A stretch of DNA of 57,400 nt from Gemmatimonadota bacterium (lineage in GTDB: Bacteria; Gemmatimonadota; Gemmatimonadetes; Gemmatimonadales; GWC2-71-9). The stretch lies in the NCBI GenBank assembly GCA_036679605.1, contig JAZDCZ010000250.1:1-57400 (forward strand). Direction: 5' to 3'. Position numbers and translations under genes: made by a program. The notes beneath the pieces are model-generated. The model saw only the letters and a list, made by a program, of their open reading frames with translations, was not told the origin of the DNA and made no database searches. Below, piece by piece: positions 1 through 5,797 of this stretch; position 1 is the stretch's first letter; each line of letters starts with the position of its first letter.

Positions 1-2
1 GT

Positions 3-62
3 ATCGTGCTGGCCTTCGCTCTCGGCGGGGTGATTCTATATCGCAACCATAACGGCAACTAA
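3..62 (+). CDS. 3' end of a membrane protein gene entering from the left edge (…IVLAFALGGVILYRNHNGN*)
   Basis: Open frame from the window edge with a hydrophobic stretch, TAA at 60-62, followed by SD GAGGAG and an ATG. Confidence 0.55.
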   Translation: MVLAFALGGVILYRNHNGN

Positions 63-91
63 GAGGAGACGTTTCGATGAAACGAACGATC
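40..91 (+). repeat. Copy 1 of a 52-bp diverged direct repeat (gene end + SD + MKRTI start)
   Basis: Matches 750-801 at 44/52 positions with no gaps. Confidence 0.85.
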
Positions 92-142
92 TGTTTCCTG
101 TGCGCGGCAGGTCCACCGCACCTTCCGAGGGGTGAGCCATGA
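77..142 (+). pseudogene. 21-codon mini-ORF MKRTICFLCAAGPPHLPRGEP, probable internally deleted gene remnant or leader peptide
   Basis: SD GAGGAG at 63-68, ATG at 77, stop overlaps the next start as ATGA (139-142), N-terminus resembles that of the ORF at 787. Confidence 0.4.
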
Positions 143-633
143 AAAGACGCACCGTTACGATCTTAGGAATCGCAATCCTCACGGCGTCAGCCGTCTATGC
201 GCATGACTTGTTTCTGAAGCTCGACGGCTATTTCGTACCCACCAATGCTGTGATGCTCCACGAGCGCAAGGAGGTAGCCGGCCTTGCCGTGGTCTTCGGT
301 GCGGAACCGGAACCTGCGCTCACCGACGAGATGCAATCGTTGCGCTGGCGGGTCAGCTCCCTGTCCGACGAGAAACCCTATTCGGACTTCCAAGATGCCA
401 AGGTGACAATCAGCCGCAACGGCGAGAAATATGGACCGTTCCCGGTGCGGGGCTCACGCCGTGATCCCGGTCTGTACCAGACACGGCACATCTTCACGGC
501 TGTCGGCGAGTACGAGTCGGTATTGAGTTTTCGGAAAGGTGAGGAAGAGAAAGTTCACACGGTCGATTTCTTATTTCGCATCCTTGATCGGACGTCCGTC
601 GAGATTCCGCCGCGCAAACCAGCGCGTCAGTAA
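139..633 (+). CDS. Secreted protein: DUF4198-like N-terminus (AHDLFLKLDGYFVP) joined to a YtkA/FixH-like beta domain
   Basis: Signal peptide ending AVYA then His; PGLY…F…GEY pattern typical of YtkA-like folds. Confidence 0.6.
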   Translation: MKRRTVTILGIAILTASAVYAHDLFLKLDGYFVPTNAVMLHERKEVAGLAVVFGAEPEPALTDEMQSLRWRVSSLSDEKPYSDFQDAKVTISRNGEKYGPFPVRGSRRDPGLYQTRHIFTAVGEYESVLSFRKGEEEKVHTVDFLFRILDRTSVEIPPRKPARQ

Positions 634-749
634 GGTGGACGGCGCATTAGGTCAGCGCGCTGATCCTTGCGACTGGTGTGCTTGCGACCGACGCTTGGCC
701 GATCGTCCATTGCTGGGAGACGAAGACTTCACGACGGTGCGCACTCCTA

Positions 750-801
750 ATCGCAACCATAACCAAAACTAAATGGAGACATTTTGATGAAACGAACCAT
801 C
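750..801 (+). repeat. Copy 2 of the 52-bp diverged direct repeat
   Basis: 44/52 identity to 40-91 at an offset of 710 nt. Confidence 0.85.
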
Positions 802-1263
802 ACGATCAGCGGATTGTGTGGCGGGTTAATTCTGGCGGTAGCGCCGCAGAGTCACGCACAGGAAACCGAACGAGAGGCAGTTCGCCGAGTAGTTGAAGCA
901 GTCGCAGAATTTGAGCAAGCGAAGAACTTGGACTCGTTGGGCACACTGTTCGCGCCTGGCCGCGGTGTCCATATCATCGAGGGCGCCGGTGTAAACCACG
1001 GCTGGGCCGACTACCGGGACAACCACTTGGGGCCGGAACTAGCCGACTTCAAGAATTTCAAGTACAGCTATTACTCAGTAGAGCCAGAGGTGCGGGGCAA
1101 CGTGGCCTGGACGTCGTTCCGGTACGACATCTCTATGGTTACTAAGCGTGGCCCTTATGACGGTGAAGGTAGAGGCACGGCGGTGCTCGAGAAGCGGGAC
1201 GGCCGTTGGATGATAGTTCACCTTCATACGTCGGGCCGAGCAAAACGGAAGCTCGCTAAGTAA
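787..1263 (+). CDS. Secreted SnoaL/NTF2-like (DUF4440-type) protein
   Basis: SD GGAG, signal peptide, EGAGVNHGWADYRDNHL motif, C-terminal GTAVLEKRDGRWMIVHLHTS. Confidence 0.8.
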   Translation: MKRTITISGLCGGLILAVAPQSHAQETEREAVRRVVEAVAEFEQAKNLDSLGTLFAPGRGVHIIEGAGVNHGWADYRDNHLGPELADFKNFKYSYYSVEPEVRGNVAWTSFRYDISMVTKRGPYDGEGRGTAVLEKRDGRWMIVHLHTSGRAKRKLAK

Positions 1264-1265
1264 CC

Positions 1266-1751
1266 GTGATGTGCTGCCGGGTTCACGGTTCTGCGCCTCA
1301 ATCACGGCCGCGAGCCGCGTGGGCCGTGGTCCTCGTAGCCCTCCAGTTAATTGGTGGGGTCTTGGTTCCGGTGTTGCATGCAGAGACCGAGACGTGGAGC
1401 GCGGCCCGCAGCATGGAGTCTAAGCACACCAAACCGTGCTCGGTCATCCACTCTGAGGCCCATTGTGCCACCACCTTGAGCCGGGCGTTGACGGAACATG
1501 GCGGTGGGCCTCAATTCGAGCCGGGAATCGTTCTCCTGACGGGAACGTCGGATCGCTTTCAACCTCTATTCACACTGTCGTCTGGCAACGCGCACAGGGT
1601 GCGCGCACCTCCTAGAAACCGACTTCGACAAGTCGGAACGTCATTTCTCATCCCATCGCCGCGCAAGGTGATGCGATTTGAGCCACGTAACCTAGGAGGT
1701 TCCTGGACATGCAGCGTGCACTACCATTCACCATTGCAACCGTTTTACTAG
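1266..1751 (+). CDS. DUF2946/CutF/CruR-like putative arrest leader protein with an RAPP motif
   Basis: N-terminal TM/signal segment, His/Cys cluster HTKPCSVIHSEAHC, RAPP at codons 113-116 (1602-1613), upstream of an outer-membrane barrel gene. Confidence 0.65.
   Translation: MMCCRVHGSAPQSRPRAAWAVVLVALQLIGGVLVPVLHAETETWSAARSMESKHTKPCSVIHSEAHCATTLSRALTEHGGGPQFEPGIVLLTGTSDRFQPLFTLSSGNAHRVRAPPRNRLRQVGTSFLIPSPRKVMRFEPRNLGGSWTCSVHYHSPLQPFY
1607..1700 (+). promoter_or_regulatory. SD-sequestering mRNA structure (putative translational attenuator)
   Basis: ACCTCCTAG (1607-1615) is the exact reverse complement of CTAGGAGGT (1692-1700, the SD); internal hairpins at 1619-1636 and 1647-1682. Confidence 0.7.
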
Positions 1752-2572
1752 CGGCATCGGCCAGCGCACAGGCCGGACCCGATTATGATCGCAACTCCAG
1801 TGCGGCCCAAATATTTCTCCCCACCGCGCATGAGTCGGCTCGCCCGATGCCTCATGGCGATCACGGCGCTGTTTCGCGTGCTATCATAGACCCTACATTT
1901 ACACACCACGCTATTCTGGAAGATGAACTGCGAGTCAATTTCTCTCGGTCTTCCAGACGTGCCACCGAGGCCCGCTCGGTCGCTACCTTGGAACTCGCCT
2001 ACGCTTTCAGCAATGCGTTCGGCGCGGAGATCTTCGTACCGTATGTCCTGGACCCCGTGGATGGTATCGGGGGCCGTGATCGGACGGTCCTGGACCTCGA
2101 GGTACAGCCTTTGAAGTGGTCCTTCATAAGGCGTTACAACTTGGTGGTTACGGCCGTCGCGGCCGGAGTCATTCCTGTGGAGCGTTCGGTCGAGTCAGGT
2201 GAGCGCGTGTGGCGTTTTGAGCCCCACCTTTTTGCCGACGCGGCGGTTGGGCCGGTGGCAATACAATCGAATGTGGTCGCGAGCTTCGCCGACAACGGCG
2301 AAACGGAGATGGAATTTGCTACGTCAGTGGCGCGGATGATTTTTATGGGGGAGGCAGTCTCAGCAGGTCCCCTGCTGGAATTGCTTTGGGAAGTTCCGGT
2401 TGACGGCTTGCCCCGCTCTCGCTCCGAGCCGTTTCTCGCTCCGGGAGCCAAGCTCCAAGTGCGCGGGTGGTATTTTGGGATCAGCTATCTGTTTCCGATT
2501 CGTTCCGGATCAGATGAGGCCACCCAGTTCGCAGTCACCGCTGGCTACCACGTCAGTTTTGGAAAGCCGTAG
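1709..2572 (+). CDS. His-rich outer-membrane beta-barrel, putative metal transporter
   Basis: SD AGGAGG, signal peptide ASA-Q, HESARPMPHGDHG and THHA His clusters, amphipathic beta strands, aromatic-rich C-terminus YHVSF. Confidence 0.65.
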   Translation: MQRALPFTIATVLLAASASAQAGPDYDRNSSAAQIFLPTAHESARPMPHGDHGAVSRAIIDPTFTHHAILEDELRVNFSRSSRRATEARSVATLELAYAFSNAFGAEIFVPYVLDPVDGIGGRDRTVLDLEVQPLKWSFIRRYNLVVTAVAAGVIPVERSVESGERVWRFEPHLFADAAVGPVAIQSNVVASFADNGETEMEFATSVARMIFMGEAVSAGPLLELLWEVPVDGLPRSRSEPFLAPGAKLQVRGWYFGISYLFPIRSGSDEATQFAVTAGYHVSFGKP

Positions 2573-2637
2573 CATGAGAAGGTGCTTGGCAGCCACATCA
2601 CGTAACGCCACTCCGCGCCCGCCCCGTTGGGCCCTCG

Positions 2638-2705
2638 ACAATAAAACGATCTTCATGGAAGCTTCACAATAAAACGATCTTCACGGAAACTTCAGTGTTT
2701 TTTCA
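2638..2705 (+). promoter_or_regulatory. Tandem 28-bp repeat carrying YTTCA-N6-YTTCA boxes with 11-bp period
   Basis: Units 2638-2665 and 2666-2693 match at 26/28; CTTCA at 2651, 2662, 2679 and 2690, TTTCA at 2701. Confidence 0.65.
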
Positions 2706-2739
2706 ATTCAGTTGTTGCATAGACCCTTGTCGAGGAATC

Positions 2740-2777
2740 CCTGTCAGGAACTTTACTCCACCTGTCAGGAACTTTAC
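2740..2777 (+). repeat. Perfect 17-bp direct repeat CCTGTCAGGAACTTTAC with 21-bp period
   Basis: Copies at 2740-2756 and 2761-2777. Confidence 0.85.
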
Positions 2778-2800
2778 CGCCGCCACGTTAGGGGGAGCCG

Positions 2801-3544
2801 TTGCGAGTTTCTGTCGGAGTCATCCTGTGGCTGACTGCCATGGGTCCCGGTGCGTCCCTGGGTTTGGCCCAGGAGCAGCGTGCCTACGTTGCTCGCGAGG
2901 TGGCCAACGGCGGAGTCATTACCGGCACCGTATCGCTGAACGTCGCGACGCCGTCACTCACACGGCTGGCGATAACGAGCGATCGCGAGGTATGCGACCA
3001 GGAGCCGAAGTTTGACGAGAGTATCATTGTCGCTCCGGAGACACGCGGCCTGAAGAATGTTGTGGTCCGGCTCACTGATATCACGGAAGGCAAGGCCTGG
3101 GACGACACAAGCCGCCCTCCAGAGCTTAGCCAGATTGCGTGCCGCTTTGCTCCGCACGTTCTCATAGTTCCGGCCGGGCAAACATTCGATATTGTCAACA
3201 GCGACGGAATACTCCATAACATCCACACGCGTGGCTCCAAGAACCGTCCGATGAACAAAGCGCATCCGAAACTCCTCAAGAGATTGACGATGAACTTCAA
3301 GCGGCCCGATCTCGTCGCCGTGAAATGCGACGTCCACGACTGGATGTCGGGGTGGATCGTGGTGGCATCCCATCCCTACTATGCCGTGACGGATCCGGCA
3401 GGAAAATTCGAGTTGCAGAATGTGCCGCCCGGAACTTACACCCTGGAACTCTGGCACGAGAAACTTGGCAAGGAGATTCGACAGGTAACCGTCACTGCCG
3501 ATGGTAGAGCCCAGGTTGATGTGGAGTTTACAGCGGGAGATTAG
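2801..3544 (+). CDS. Periplasmic cupredoxin-like / carboxypeptidase-regulatory-like domain protein
   Basis: TTG start with SD GGGGGAG, signal peptide, CRFAPHV, HNIH…KCDVHDWM (His/Cys/His/Met ligands), VPPGTYTLELWHEKLG. Confidence 0.75.
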   Translation: MRVSVGVILWLTAMGPGASLGLAQEQRAYVAREVANGGVITGTVSLNVATPSLTRLAITSDREVCDQEPKFDESIIVAPETRGLKNVVVRLTDITEGKAWDDTSRPPELSQIACRFAPHVLIVPAGQTFDIVNSDGILHNIHTRGSKNRPMNKAHPKLLKRLTMNFKRPDLVAVKCDVHDWMSGWIVVASHPYYAVTDPAGKFELQNVPPGTYTLELWHEKLGKEIRQVTVTADGRAQVDVEFTAGD

Positions 3545-3613
3545 TTGGGAGATAGGCTTCGGGATTGCTTCCGAAGGGAATTTGATAGGGGGGAGTTTGT
3601 TAAGGTGAGTTCT

Positions 3614-4366
3614 ATGAAATTGCGGATCTGCCTAATCCCACTCGCAATCCTTTTCCTCTGGCCGCAAGTGGGGGTTCAGGCGCAAGCCTCAGTGACAATA
3701 TCGATGGCGAACAGGGAGTCGGTGGGCGCGGGTAAAAGACTTTACCGGAGGAAATGTGTCTATTGTCACGGCACGAATGGCAACGGAGATGGATCGGTCG
3801 CAAGGTATGTCTTTCCAAAACCCAGAGATTTCACACAAGGCGTGTTCAAGATTCGCTCTACGCCTACAGGGGGCCTTCCCACAGATAACGATCTGTTTCA
3901 GACTCTGAACCGCGGCCTCCCCGGAACCACCATGCCGGGATGGTTGAACTTGAGCGATAAGCAGCGGTGGCAGTTGGTGGCATACATCAAGACCTTCTCG
4001 CCCAGGTTCCAAGAGGAAGATCTCCCCGAGCCCATCCGCTTCGGCACGCCTAAACTCCCCTACCCGGAGAGCGTAATGAACGGCAGGCGGCTTTTTGTCG
4101 AGGCCGAATGCTGGAAGTGTCATGGAACGCTCGGTAGGGGAGATGGGCCTTCGTCTCATACCCTGATAGATGATTGGGGCTATCCGATTGTTCCGGCTGA
4201 TCTTACTGTCTCGCGCAACTGGCGAGGCGGCAATCGCGCACAAGACATCTTTCGAAGTATCGCCGTTGGGATCGGAGGCACGTCTATGCCAGGTTGGATG
4301 GACGCGTTGAGTGAGGATCAGATATGGGATCTGACCAACTACTTGCTCTCGATCATTCGCGGATAG
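3614..4366 (+). CDS. Periplasmic diheme c-type cytochrome
   Basis: Signal peptide from ATG 3614, CVYCH and CWKCH, PKPRDFT…GT(T/S)MP distal Met motifs in both domains. Confidence 0.9.
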   Translation: MKLRICLIPLAILFLWPQVGVQAQASVTISMANRESVGAGKRLYRRKCVYCHGTNGNGDGSVARYVFPKPRDFTQGVFKIRSTPTGGLPTDNDLFQTLNRGLPGTTMPGWLNLSDKQRWQLVAYIKTFSPRFQEEDLPEPIRFGTPKLPYPESVMNGRRLFVEAECWKCHGTLGRGDGPSSHTLIDDWGYPIVPADLTVSRNWRGGNRAQDIFRSIAVGIGGTSMPGWMDALSEDQIWDLTNYLLSIIRG

Positions 4367-4417
4367 TCGAGGTCGGGCCCTGCGCTTGCCGCATTCGAAA
4401 CACAGGAAGAACTAGCC

Positions 4418-5797
4418 ATGAATCGCGTTAGAAAGATGAGTCTCGTTGTCCCGGGCGTAATGCTGAGTGTCTCCTCGGTTCTGCTCGTTCCTGGGCACGA
4501 CCGGCCGACAGACCACGTGCCCAGTTTTGCACGTCGCTACAACCTGAGTTGCAGTACTTGCCATACTGTGTTCCCCGCGTTGACTGAGTATGGCAAGGTG
4601 TTCCGTGCGAAGGGTTATCGCTTGCCGGGTACTGGAGGAGCAGCAGGCGGCGAACAGCCGCTTGCACTGGGACCGGAGGACGGGGTTCCGAAGGGGAAAC
4701 GTCCCACTAACATTCCTTTCATAGACATACCGGCAACTTCGGTTGCTTCCTTTCAGATCATATCAGACTTCGTGAACCGACCCGATGCCGCGGTCAGCAA
4801 CGAGTTTACCGGAATCAGCTCGGTTGGGCTCATCTTCGGAGGCGCTATGGGTGAGCGCTTTTCGTTCTTTGGCAACGTTGCCCTGGTCGAGAACGGGAAT
4901 TTCGAAGGGATTGATCGCCTATTCTTGCAGTACAACCGATCGATGGCGATTAACGTTAGAGTGGGACAGTTCGAGCCACGAGCCATACCGTTTTCCAACC
5001 ACCGTCGCTTGCTCCGCATCACACCTTATCTAAACGGCGTCTTACCCATAATACCGGCGCAGAACTTCAACGGTTTTTCCCCGAACCAGAAAGGCATCGA
5101 GACGTTCGGACGTATTGCCGGGCCCGCGGGTTTAGGGGAACTGGAATACAGCATAGGTCTCGTCAATGGTGAGCCCGGTGGCGCCTTCGAGGCGCTTGAG
5201 GATGCCGACGGGCCCGTTGCTGACATGGTTCATGAGTTGGAGGAGGCCTACGAAGAATCCGGCGGCAAGTTCGATTTCAATAATAACAAAGATTATTATG
5301 GGCGCCTGAACTACAACACATGGCTCCGGGGAGGAATCTCCGTAGGGGGCTTCTTTTATAAAGGTAGGTCAGGTTTCATGACGGATGTCGAGGATTCGGA
5401 ATCATTCGTCGCCGATGGCAACTCTTTCCGCCGCTGGGGAGTAGATGCCCGATGGGACCAAGAAAACGGTTACCTGTCGCTGTTAGGATCCGTGCAGTTC
5501 TTCGATGACAGGTTGGACAGAGCGCAGCTTGACAACCCGTCAGCGATGGTGACCACAGGAGAGGGACAGGTGTACATCTTTCCCTGGCTCGTGCCGGGCT
5601 TCCGCTACGAACGGGTTGATGTGGACCGATTCCCGTCCGGTTTTCCGACCAGTTTCGAGCGTTACTCGGCTGATCTACTGATGCTACTTGCCTCGAATAC
5701 CATGTTGATGATCGGGACCACGTGGAGCAGCAACTCGGCGCCCGACTTGCCGCTGTTCGAGAGATTCTCACGCGTAGCGCTGCACCTCGCTTTCTGA
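4418..5797 (+). CDS. Cyc2-like fused monoheme cytochrome-porin (outer membrane)
   Basis: N-terminal PSFARRYNLSCSTCHTVFPALTEYGKVFRAKGY matches the Cyc2 PxFAR…CxxCH…PxL…G…F…GY signature; beta-barrel body; terminal Phe. Confidence 0.8.
   Translation: MNRVRKMSLVVPGVMLSVSSVLLVPGHDRPTDHVPSFARRYNLSCSTCHTVFPALTEYGKVFRAKGYRLPGTGGAAGGEQPLALGPEDGVPKGKRPTNIPFIDIPATSVASFQIISDFVNRPDAAVSNEFTGISSVGLIFGGAMGERFSFFGNVALVENGNFEGIDRLFLQYNRSMAINVRVGQFEPRAIPFSNHRRLLRITPYLNGVLPIIPAQNFNGFSPNQKGIETFGRIAGPAGLGELEYSIGLVNGEPGGAFEALEDADGPVADMVHELEEAYEESGGKFDFNNNKDYYGRLNYNTWLRGGISVGGFFYKGRSGFMTDVEDSESFVADGNSFRRWGVDARWDQENGYLSLLGSVQFFDDRLDRAQLDNPSAMVTTGEGQVYIFPWLVPGFRYERVDVDRFPSGFPTSFERYSADLLMLLASNTMLMIGTTWSSNSAPDLPLFERFSRVALHLAF

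Follow-up and report, generated by a model that had tools for sequence, protein, structure and literature searches.

We find that the open reading frame (ORF) at positions 1266-1751 of a 57,400-nt stretch of DNA from a Gemmatimonadota bacterium (assembly GCA_036679605.1, contig JAZDCZ010000250.1, positions 1 to 57,400 of the forward strand; hereafter the window, which is one contig within a 6.7-Mb genome bin) carries a putative metal site and a RAPP motif, and that the Pro codons of this motif lie within an exact complement of the Shine-Dalgarno (SD) sequence of the next gene, which encodes a predicted outer-membrane barrel. We propose, with a probability of about 0.68, that this ORF is a divergent leader of the CruR/CutF type, in which a ribosome stalled at RAPP would free the SD and start codon of the barrel gene and so switch the gene on.

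The leader ORF begins with a GTG codon 2 nt past the stop of a SnoaL-like gene (784-1263; Pfam). A gene-caller version of the same leader is 141 aa long and starts at 1326. Its features are as follows.

1266..1751, plus strand: leader ORF of 161 codons, with a GTG start at 1266 and a TAG stop at 1749-1751
1266..1382, plus strand: Arg-rich N-terminus, then a hydrophobic segment ending in VLHA (H38, A39)
1425..1466, plus strand: His/Cys cluster HTKPCSVIHSEAHC (H54-x3-C58-x3-H62-x3-H66-C67; residues 54-67), a putative metal site
1602..1613, plus strand: RAPP, encoded by CGC GCA CCT CCT (residues 113-116), the predicted arrest site

Read from the sequence, the Arg-rich N-terminus, the hydrophobic stretch and the near-invariant H-A pair would fit a Sec signal, and this part of the leader looks like a Sec signal peptide with cleavage after HA; signal-peptide cleavage sites follow a small-residue rule at -1/-3. 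The metal site comprises C58-x8-C67 together with H54, H62 and H66, and holds no CXXC. In RAPP, the first Pro codon is 1608-1610 and the second 1611-1613. A TAG at 1613-1615 (within ACCTCCTAG) lies in another frame and does not end the ORF, which puts RAPP at an internal position in the window copy: 45 further codons follow. They extend over the RNA helix described below and over the SD and start of the barrel gene (1709-2572), and the ORF ends 40 nt inside it. A first-pass annotation of this DNA, made from its letters alone, had placed a His/Cys cluster and a RAPP at 1602-1613 in this ORF, and both are there; it had also pointed to DUF2946 leaders that stall at a C-terminal RAPP or Pro-rich motif, a position that does not hold for RAPP in this copy.

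The RNA between the arrest motif and the barrel gene contains a long-range helix and two hairpins.

1600..1615, plus strand: 5' strand of the helix enclosing the start region; 1607-1615 is the anti-SD ACCTCCTAG, and 1600-1606 pairs with 1714-1720
1619..1636, plus strand: hairpin 1, CCGACTT/AAGTCGG, 7 bp with a 4-nt loop (RNAfold)
1647..1682, plus strand: hairpin 2, CTCA..CATCGCC/GGTGATG..TGAG (RNAfold)
1692..1700, plus strand: SD strand CTAGGAGGT, with GGAGG at 1695-1699, 9 nt ahead of the ATG at 1709
1709..2572, plus strand: barrel gene, 287 aa; N-terminus resembling a signal peptide, conserved His-rich segment (HGDH..THHAILEDE), 12-strand beta-barrel by prediction
1714..1720, plus strand: 3' strand of the lower helix, within codons 2-4 of the barrel gene

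The anti-SD at 1607-1615 and the SD strand at 1692-1700 form an inverted repeat, 100% complementary, with 76 nt between the arms, and in the whole 57.4-kb window the 9-mer is present only at those two arms (0.29 expected; two matches were obtained in 3 of 100 shuffles). RNAfold of 1595-1720 gives a minimum free energy (MFE) of -49.7 kcal/mol, compared with -36.6 +/- 3.5 kcal/mol for shuffled sequences (z -3.71), and none of 200 shuffles was as stable. In this fold the 9-bp anti-SD/SD helix, prolonged by 1600-1606/1714-1720, closes the two hairpins; with the lower helix, the structure takes in the SD together with the flanks of the start codon. The perfect complementarity and the two hairpins had been described in the first-pass annotation exactly as we find them, and the SD-sequestering structure that it proposed is the one that RNAfold returns. 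The probability that the SD is paired with the stall zone is 0.98, a value reached by none of 40 shuffles (dinucleotide shuffles of the upstream part, 40 per locus, here and below). A stalled ribosome would cover -12..+15 around the first Pro codon, and when this footprint is forced to be single-stranded the probability that the SD core is unpaired rises from 0.01 to 0.53; opening the SD and start is then computed to cost 8.5 instead of 16.4 kcal/mol, a saving of 7.9 kcal/mol. A search of positions 1-4500 against Rfam (E<=10) returned nothing at 1595-1720 and two chance-level matches elsewhere. As a separate observation, a perfect 7-bp hairpin with a 3-nt loop, CGCGCAC/GTGCGCG at 1589-1605, appears once 60 nt of upstream sequence join the fold; it would draw 1599-1605 away from the lower helix and may represent an alternative conformation of the switch.

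The leader has many relatives in the phylum. A single-sequence search among 5.8 billion proteins matched only the window's own protein, and six-frame searching of 401 genomes of the phylum yielded numerous weak matches to leader residues 12-120. From these we obtained 10 loci, and 40 further regions were added; 48 loci were scanned for the Cys/His motif, and 44 have an ORF that carries it (it is absent in L025, L028, L050 and L051). In an alignment of these 44 relatives with the window ORF (45 sequences), C58, H62, C67, P115 and P116 are invariant and H38, A39, E51, H54 and R113 near-invariant. The C-terminal motif of the 44 relatives is RAPP in 35, RGPP in 7, RSPP in 1 and TGPP in 1, so that with the window RAPP stands in 36/45 members and RGPP in 7/45; in every one of the 44, the Pro-Pro motif is followed by 2-5 residues and then a stop. 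Between the last motif Cys and the Arg lie 42-48 residues across the family and 45 in the window (C67 to R113). A CXXC starting at the equivalent of C67 is found in 25 of the 45 members, and the other 20, the window among them, lack it.

A profile search found at least 365 proteins; among the 120 matches listed, the proteins are 107-121 aa long with no Pfam domain, and those that are named are hypothetical proteins of Gemmatimonadales or Gemmatimonadetes. At E<=0.001 the family comprises 1132 representatives of 50%-identity clusters, of which 198 match at 1e-10 or better. When the best 150 of the 1132 were inspected by eye, only the window protein matched the end of the profile and yet continued, for 44 residues. 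Two database proteins, P0152 and P0172, are missing the RAPP end altogether. P0152 (334 aa) joins the N-terminal 100 residues of a leader, without RAPP, to a 415-435-aa protein that is otherwise encoded downstream of such leaders (see below), and is either a natural deletion/fusion or an assembly artefact. NCBIfam gave nothing meaningful for the 45 leaders. The window's own genome contains a second leader (L045; G000:C296, minus strand), and this one is canonical, with RGPP, three residues and a stop; it precedes a 421-aa signal-peptide protein of no Pfam family, whose SD pairs with the stall zone at a probability of 0.83.

Pairing between the SD and the stall zone extends across the family. 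Here we used 44 loci including the window and left out L054, in which the downstream gene runs off the contig. The distance from RAPP to the start is 82-181 nt, mostly 95-125 and 107 in the window. In the MFE folds, at least 4 of 6 SD-core nucleotides are paired with an upstream strand in 40/44 loci, and in 32/44 the pairing strand lies at least partly within -12..+15 of the first Pro codon; in 15 loci it takes in the leader stop. Pairing of the SD with -6..+30 of the Arg codon has a mean probability of 0.65, versus 0.17 for shuffles; the probability exceeds 0.5 in 33/44 loci, and in 25/44 it is reached by at most 2 of the 40 shuffles. The helix sequences vary by locus (for example, ACCUCCUAG/CUAGGAGGU, UCCUCUCCUG/CAGGAGAGGA and GCCGGCCUGAUCC/GGAUCAGGAAGGU), and the duplex between stall zone and SD has a native mean of -17.3 kcal/mol, compared with -14.3 kcal/mol when partners are swapped between loci, a difference matched in 0 of 5000 permutations. 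The SD/stall-zone pairing is locus-specific and covaries between loci. The choice of Pro codon is also unusual: CCT is used at the first Pro in 16/45 leaders (36%), versus 10% of the other Pro codons in the leaders and 6% in the downstream genes. The first-pass annotation had suggested looking at pairing and Pro codon choice in homologs, and this comparison speaks for it: the arms are kept within the genus (below), 32 of the 44 loci pair under the footprint, and CCT is enriched at the first Pro.

This covariation bears on a different, CruR-like explanation, in which the stalled ribosome would block Rho loading, the barrel gene would be controlled at transcription, and the part played by the SD helix would be a secondary one. 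Among RAPP/DUF2946 leaders CruR is the best studied, and it does act through Rho-dependent termination ahead of an outer-membrane gene (PMC9426467); Rho control and SD unmasking can coexist. However, locus-specific covariation of SD and stall zone has no role under a Rho model. The stretch from the RAPP end to the start is strongly structured and shows no C-over-G bias (C 0.28, G 0.25), the C/G ratio exceeds 1.3 in only 9/44 family loci, and this missing rut-like bias weakens a CruR-type Rho model; a scan for intrinsic terminators likewise found no terminator-like site at 1600-1709, between the leader and the barrel gene. We therefore regard control through Rho as improbable here. A promoter scan over 600-2900 found 0 sigma-70-like sites, a result that may not cover the promoter types of this phylum.

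A second genome of the same genus (G001), in which the leader ORF is cut by the start of the contig, indicates how the locus evolves. Upstream of RAPP the two leaders are 85% identical, and their differences fall 11/12/23 on the three codon positions (binomial p 0.014). From RAPP to the start, nucleotide identity drops to 70% and the differences fall 9/11/11, with no indels and with both 9-nt arms unchanged; the 45 codons past RAPP share 48% amino-acid identity. The frame of the same-genus ORF has no stop near RAPP and stays open even further than the window's 1751. The same-genus fold keeps the SD helix and hairpin 2, and in a count of pairs over both genomes 88% of cells are paired, versus 28-43% with slid partners. 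Hairpin 2 is retained through one-sided G-C/G-U changes (96% of cells paired, 5 pairs), and the sequence of hairpin 1 is not conserved (71% of cells paired). Judged by these comparisons, the post-RAPP codons appear to evolve like structured non-coding RNA, a pattern that would fit a stall that usually ends translation and would also allow coupling or occlusion by ribosomes that read through.

The last possibility can be taken further as plain translational coupling, in which leader ribosomes would open the structure, translation of the barrel gene would follow, and RAPP would be inherited and not decisive. In its favour, no stop interrupts the window ORF before the one that ends at 1751, 40 nt within the barrel gene, and the same-genus frame extends further still; a leader start 2 nt past the SnoaL-like stop suggests a coupled chain. 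Against this, the 45 codons past RAPP show no codon periodicity and 48% amino-acid identity, a pattern expected of codons that are seldom translated or do not matter as protein; a ribosome crossing the SD and start would also block initiation in the meantime. The 44 relatives, which all stop 2-5 codons past the motif, cannot use read-through at all, and R113, P115 and P116 are retained in both genus members. Coupling of this kind therefore seems to us an improbable account, about on a par with Rho control.

Still less probable, in our view, is that the leader is decaying and no longer works as a sensor, with both its stop and the second CXXC Cys gone, and that the helix is a constitutive brake or an RNA element responding to temperature or to a trans-acting factor. 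A stop near RAPP and a CXXC are indeed both missing, the same-genus barrel gene has a deletion of 1 nt, a leader is absent from other barrel homologues, and no Rfam family matches. Yet all invariant family residues are retained in both genus members, the third-position bias upstream of RAPP indicates coding constraint, 20/45 family members likewise lack CXXC, and both helix arms are unchanged amid 30% divergence. The deletion (L006; G001:C12, at about 822-825, corresponding to about 2130 in the window) splits the same-genus barrel gene into two frames, and a truncated product of 200 aa is in the protein collection (P0013); it may be a pseudogene or an assembly error.

Two other explanations of the open frame were rejected. 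The out-of-frame TAG at 1613-1615 could have been a stop reached by frameshifting; we set this aside because, as read from the sequence, a tRNA on either Pro codon would find nowhere to re-pair in the TAG frame. Loss of the stop by sequencing error was set aside because the same-genus genome shares CCTCCTAG and also keeps the frame open.

Returning to a RAPP stall that unmasks the SD, a number of observations weigh against it. In the window, RAPP sits 45 codons from the leader end, in contrast to all 44 relatives, and this could signal decay; the CXXC needed by CruR for copper sensing is lacking there; the same-genus fold reaches only z -1.66, with 13/200 shuffles as stable; and the two-genome comparison contains one-sided changes and no two-sided compensatory change, since an alignment of two genomes cannot reveal two-sided covariation. 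By duplex energy alone, 5 of 98 upstream windows match the window's own stall zone, and across the family the stall zone tops all upstream leader windows in only 18/44 loci; this sliding control discriminates poorly in GC-rich leaders, and we relied on full folds with shuffles. In 12/44 loci no SD-pairing strand lies under the footprint. When the footprint is forced single-stranded, the probability that the SD core is unpaired rises by at least 0.3 in only 13/44 loci, and the cost of opening the SD through the start falls by at least 3 kcal/mol in 21/44 and by at most 0.5 kcal/mol in 12/44, with a mean saving of 3.4 kcal/mol across the 44 loci. A heuristic based on signal peptides and SDs assigned the downstream starts behind these figures, except for 6 that were placed manually, and the loci in the pairing statistics are related and so not independent. 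Finally, the window protein has no match to PF11162 (DUF2946) at E<=1 (gathering score 23.7 bits), and PF11162 matches 8/45 family members at E<=1, the best at 0.013 and none above the cut-off.

The first-pass annotation had named DUF2946 as the kin of this leader. Direct matching to the family model fails for the window protein and is weak for its relatives, as just described; what stands is a link between profiles. A PF11162 search of 151 phylum genomes gave 21 matches at E<=0.01, 4 of them above the cut-off, and a six-frame PF11162 search of the window's genome gave none. We assembled 12 phylum ORFs that match PF11162 at E<=0.1 (best 2.1e-6), all of which end in RAPP plus 2-5 residues. Aligned by hhalign to this set, which comes from the same phylum and has three members that also bear the leader-family motif, the leader family matches with a probability of 98.2% (E 5.2e-14, 111 columns). 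Because of this profile-profile match, we read the leader family, on its sequence features, as a divergent branch of the DUF2946 superfamily, and do not count the window protein among the members of the Pfam family. The window shares the spacing of 45 from metal motif to RAPP with CruR, and lacks the CXXC/CxxxC of these leaders. CutF-like clusters are reported to have Cys, His or mixed sites (PMC9973294), and the Cys/His site of the window is thus within the range of the wider family.

To our knowledge, metal sensing by DUF2946 leaders has been tested in only two systems, both of Pseudomonadota, one working by Rho termination and the other by SD unmasking. DUF2946 is defined by a CXXC and by a RAPP three residues from the end with 45 residues between them, and the RAPP and CXXC of CruR are both needed for copper control (PMC9426467). 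CutF has a Sec signal peptide, a CxxxC and a C-terminal PPP, and its stalling is proposed to melt a stem-loop that holds the anti-SD (PMC9973294; bioRxiv 10.1101/2025.02.05.636593). RAPP and RGPP are the strongest arrest cores (PMC12992588). CruR gives toeprints at its two Pro codons, with the ribosome stalled when they are in the P and A sites (PMC12992588; PMC10951233), and a survey has described RAPP-like upstream ORFs ahead of TonB-dependent receptor and copper genes (PMC12992588). The earlier statement that CruR and CutF stalling controls copper genes agrees with these accounts (PMC9426467; PMC9973294; bioRxiv 10.1101/2025.02.05.636593).

Based on these data, the proposed switch would work as follows. 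The N-terminus of the leader would direct co-translational export, and, as in other RAPP peptides, translation would arrest with peptidyl-RAP-tRNA occupying the P site at 1608-1610 while Pro-tRNA sits in the A site at 1611-1613. For the footprint given above, the stalled ribosome would cover about 1596-1623 and keep 1600-1615 single-stranded; standing 87 nt from the SD, it would leave room for a further ribosome at the start region. The Cys/His site lies 45 residues behind the point of arrest and may sense a metal (perhaps copper, which is a guess) or the pull of export, and the sensed signal would set the duration of the stall. On release, the helix would re-form and the barrel gene would be shut. 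Because there is no stop near RAPP in the window or in the same-genus copy, released ribosomes would read through the hairpins, the SD and the start to 1751. A metal role of the barrel and of the sensing, copper included, is a guess.

A much broader version of this proposal we consider doubtful. In it, one sensor would give three outputs (closed, open, and occluded or coupled), RAPP having replaced the stop as the working end of the leader in this genus, and throughout the phylum more than 1000 Cys/His RAPP leaders would gate outer-membrane genes with coding and anti-SD functions sharing the same bases. If this is true, the gated set consists of a 415-435-aa protein of no known family, TolC-like ducts, TonB receptors and the 12-strand barrel.

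The closest known system in mechanism is CutF-cutO of Rhodobacter capsulatus, which also has an exported small protein, a Cys motif, a Pro-rich stall and an anti-SD stem-loop (PMC9973294). As described there, it differs in several respects. CutF stalls on PPP and depends on elongation factor P (EF-P), whereas the window has RAPP; its anti-SD lies in an intergenic stem-loop, whereas that of the window is the Pro-Pro codons themselves; its target is a periplasmic multicopper oxidase, not a 12-strand outer-membrane barrel of no known family; and its motif is CxxxC, in contrast to H-x3-C-x3-H-x4-C and the lack of a stop near RAPP in the window. CruR (Bp2923)-bfrG of Bordetella pertussis shares RAPP, the 45-residue spacing and an exported leader before an outer-membrane gene (PMC9426467); it is described as having Rho-dependent termination, CXXC and RAPP 3 residues from the end, whereas the window has SD masking, no CXXC and an internal RAPP. 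ApdA, ApdP and SecM are likewise small exported proteins, with an R-A/G-P-P core close to the end and a stall that controls a downstream gene (PMC10951233; PMC12992588). Unlike the window barrel, the targets given for them are sec/yidC genes, and what they monitor is the activity of Sec or YidC.

RAPP arrest peptides, DUF2946 leaders, SD unmasking by CutF, and RAPP upstream ORFs before TonB and copper genes are already known. What is new is a Gemmatimonadota branch below Pfam detection, with an H-x3-C-x3-H-x4-C core, a stop-less copy and a 12-strand barrel as target. Gemmatimonadota and SD pairing are absent from the main text of PMC12992588, and Gemmatimonadota from that of PMC9973294; in the literature searched we found no paper that links Gemmatimonadota with arrest peptides, although the supplements of PMC9426467, PMC9973294 and PMC12992588 may list such proteins. 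The locus and its family extend DUF2946-type leaders to Gemmatimonadota in a form that Pfam misses. In many members, the codons at or just past the arrest motif double as anti-SD, which would explain the unusual Pro codon choice, and this sharing of bases makes for a compact design that lends itself to mutational tests. The stop-less copy is in turn a natural experiment on the fate of ribosomes that escape arrest.

The gene downstream of the leader was also analyzed by fold. The 287-aa protein has no Pfam family and 15 database relatives including the window entry, which have the segment HG.H...IDPTFTHHAILEDELRVN in common. An AlphaFold2 model built on the alignment of these relatives has 12 strands (mean predicted local distance difference test score, pLDDT, 75.9; predicted template-modelling score, pTM, 0.72). 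Its top Foldseek match is FapF (5o68; E 4.4e-8, template-modelling score 0.56/0.63), followed by 4rl8 (a COG4313 channel), NanC, KdgM and OmpG. Since no sequence family matches, the likeness to 12-strand channels is at the level of the fold only. The model thus predicts a non-TonB outer-membrane barrel as the target in the window, in keeping with the His-rich non-TonB barrel of the first-pass annotation, and its fold resembles FapF. In two more distant loci (L005 and L007), the barrel gene stands directly after the SnoaL-like gene with no leader; among the loci seen, the leader cassette therefore sits between this conserved gene pair in this genus only.

Of the downstream products of the relatives, 43 were scanned: 3 are TonB-dependent receptors (L020, L027, L044), 4 are TolC-like outer-membrane efflux proteins (L032, L038, L041, L047) and 36 have no Pfam family. 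In most of those without a family, the product is a protein of 415-435 aa that has a signal peptide and whose N-terminal segment is DSL-rich. One type of leader thus precedes both export-type and import-type genes, and the family marks several outer-membrane proteins that lack a known family, among them the 415-435-aa protein and the 287-aa barrel, as probable metal-related genes.

The wider neighbourhood contains a few further elements. Following the barrel gene, 2801-3544 encodes a protein with HNIH...CDVHDWM and then a carboxypeptidase-regulatory-like domain, and 3545-4366 encodes a di-haem cytochrome c (Pfam). We take the C-x2-H-x2-M of the first of these products to resemble a type-1 copper site; Pfam finds no cupredoxin in it. 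Together, the genes at 2801-4366 are the only hint of copper or redox chemistry in the neighbourhood, as far as their sequences suggest. Upstream, the 5' leader of the SnoaL-like gene occurs twice together with its first codons, as a 52-nt direct repeat (40-91 and 750-801; 85% identical). Copy one opens a 21-codon ORF at 77-142 (MKRTICFLCAAGPPHLPRGEP) with CXXC and AGPP, whose stop overlaps the ATG of the gene at 139-633 (ATGA). Between the barrel gene and 2801, a 28-nt unit occurs twice in tandem at 2638-2693 (93% identical), and a perfect 17-nt repeat, CCTGTCAGGAACTTTAC, occurs twice at 2740-2777, 21 nt apart; these repeats are candidate regulator-binding or promoter elements.

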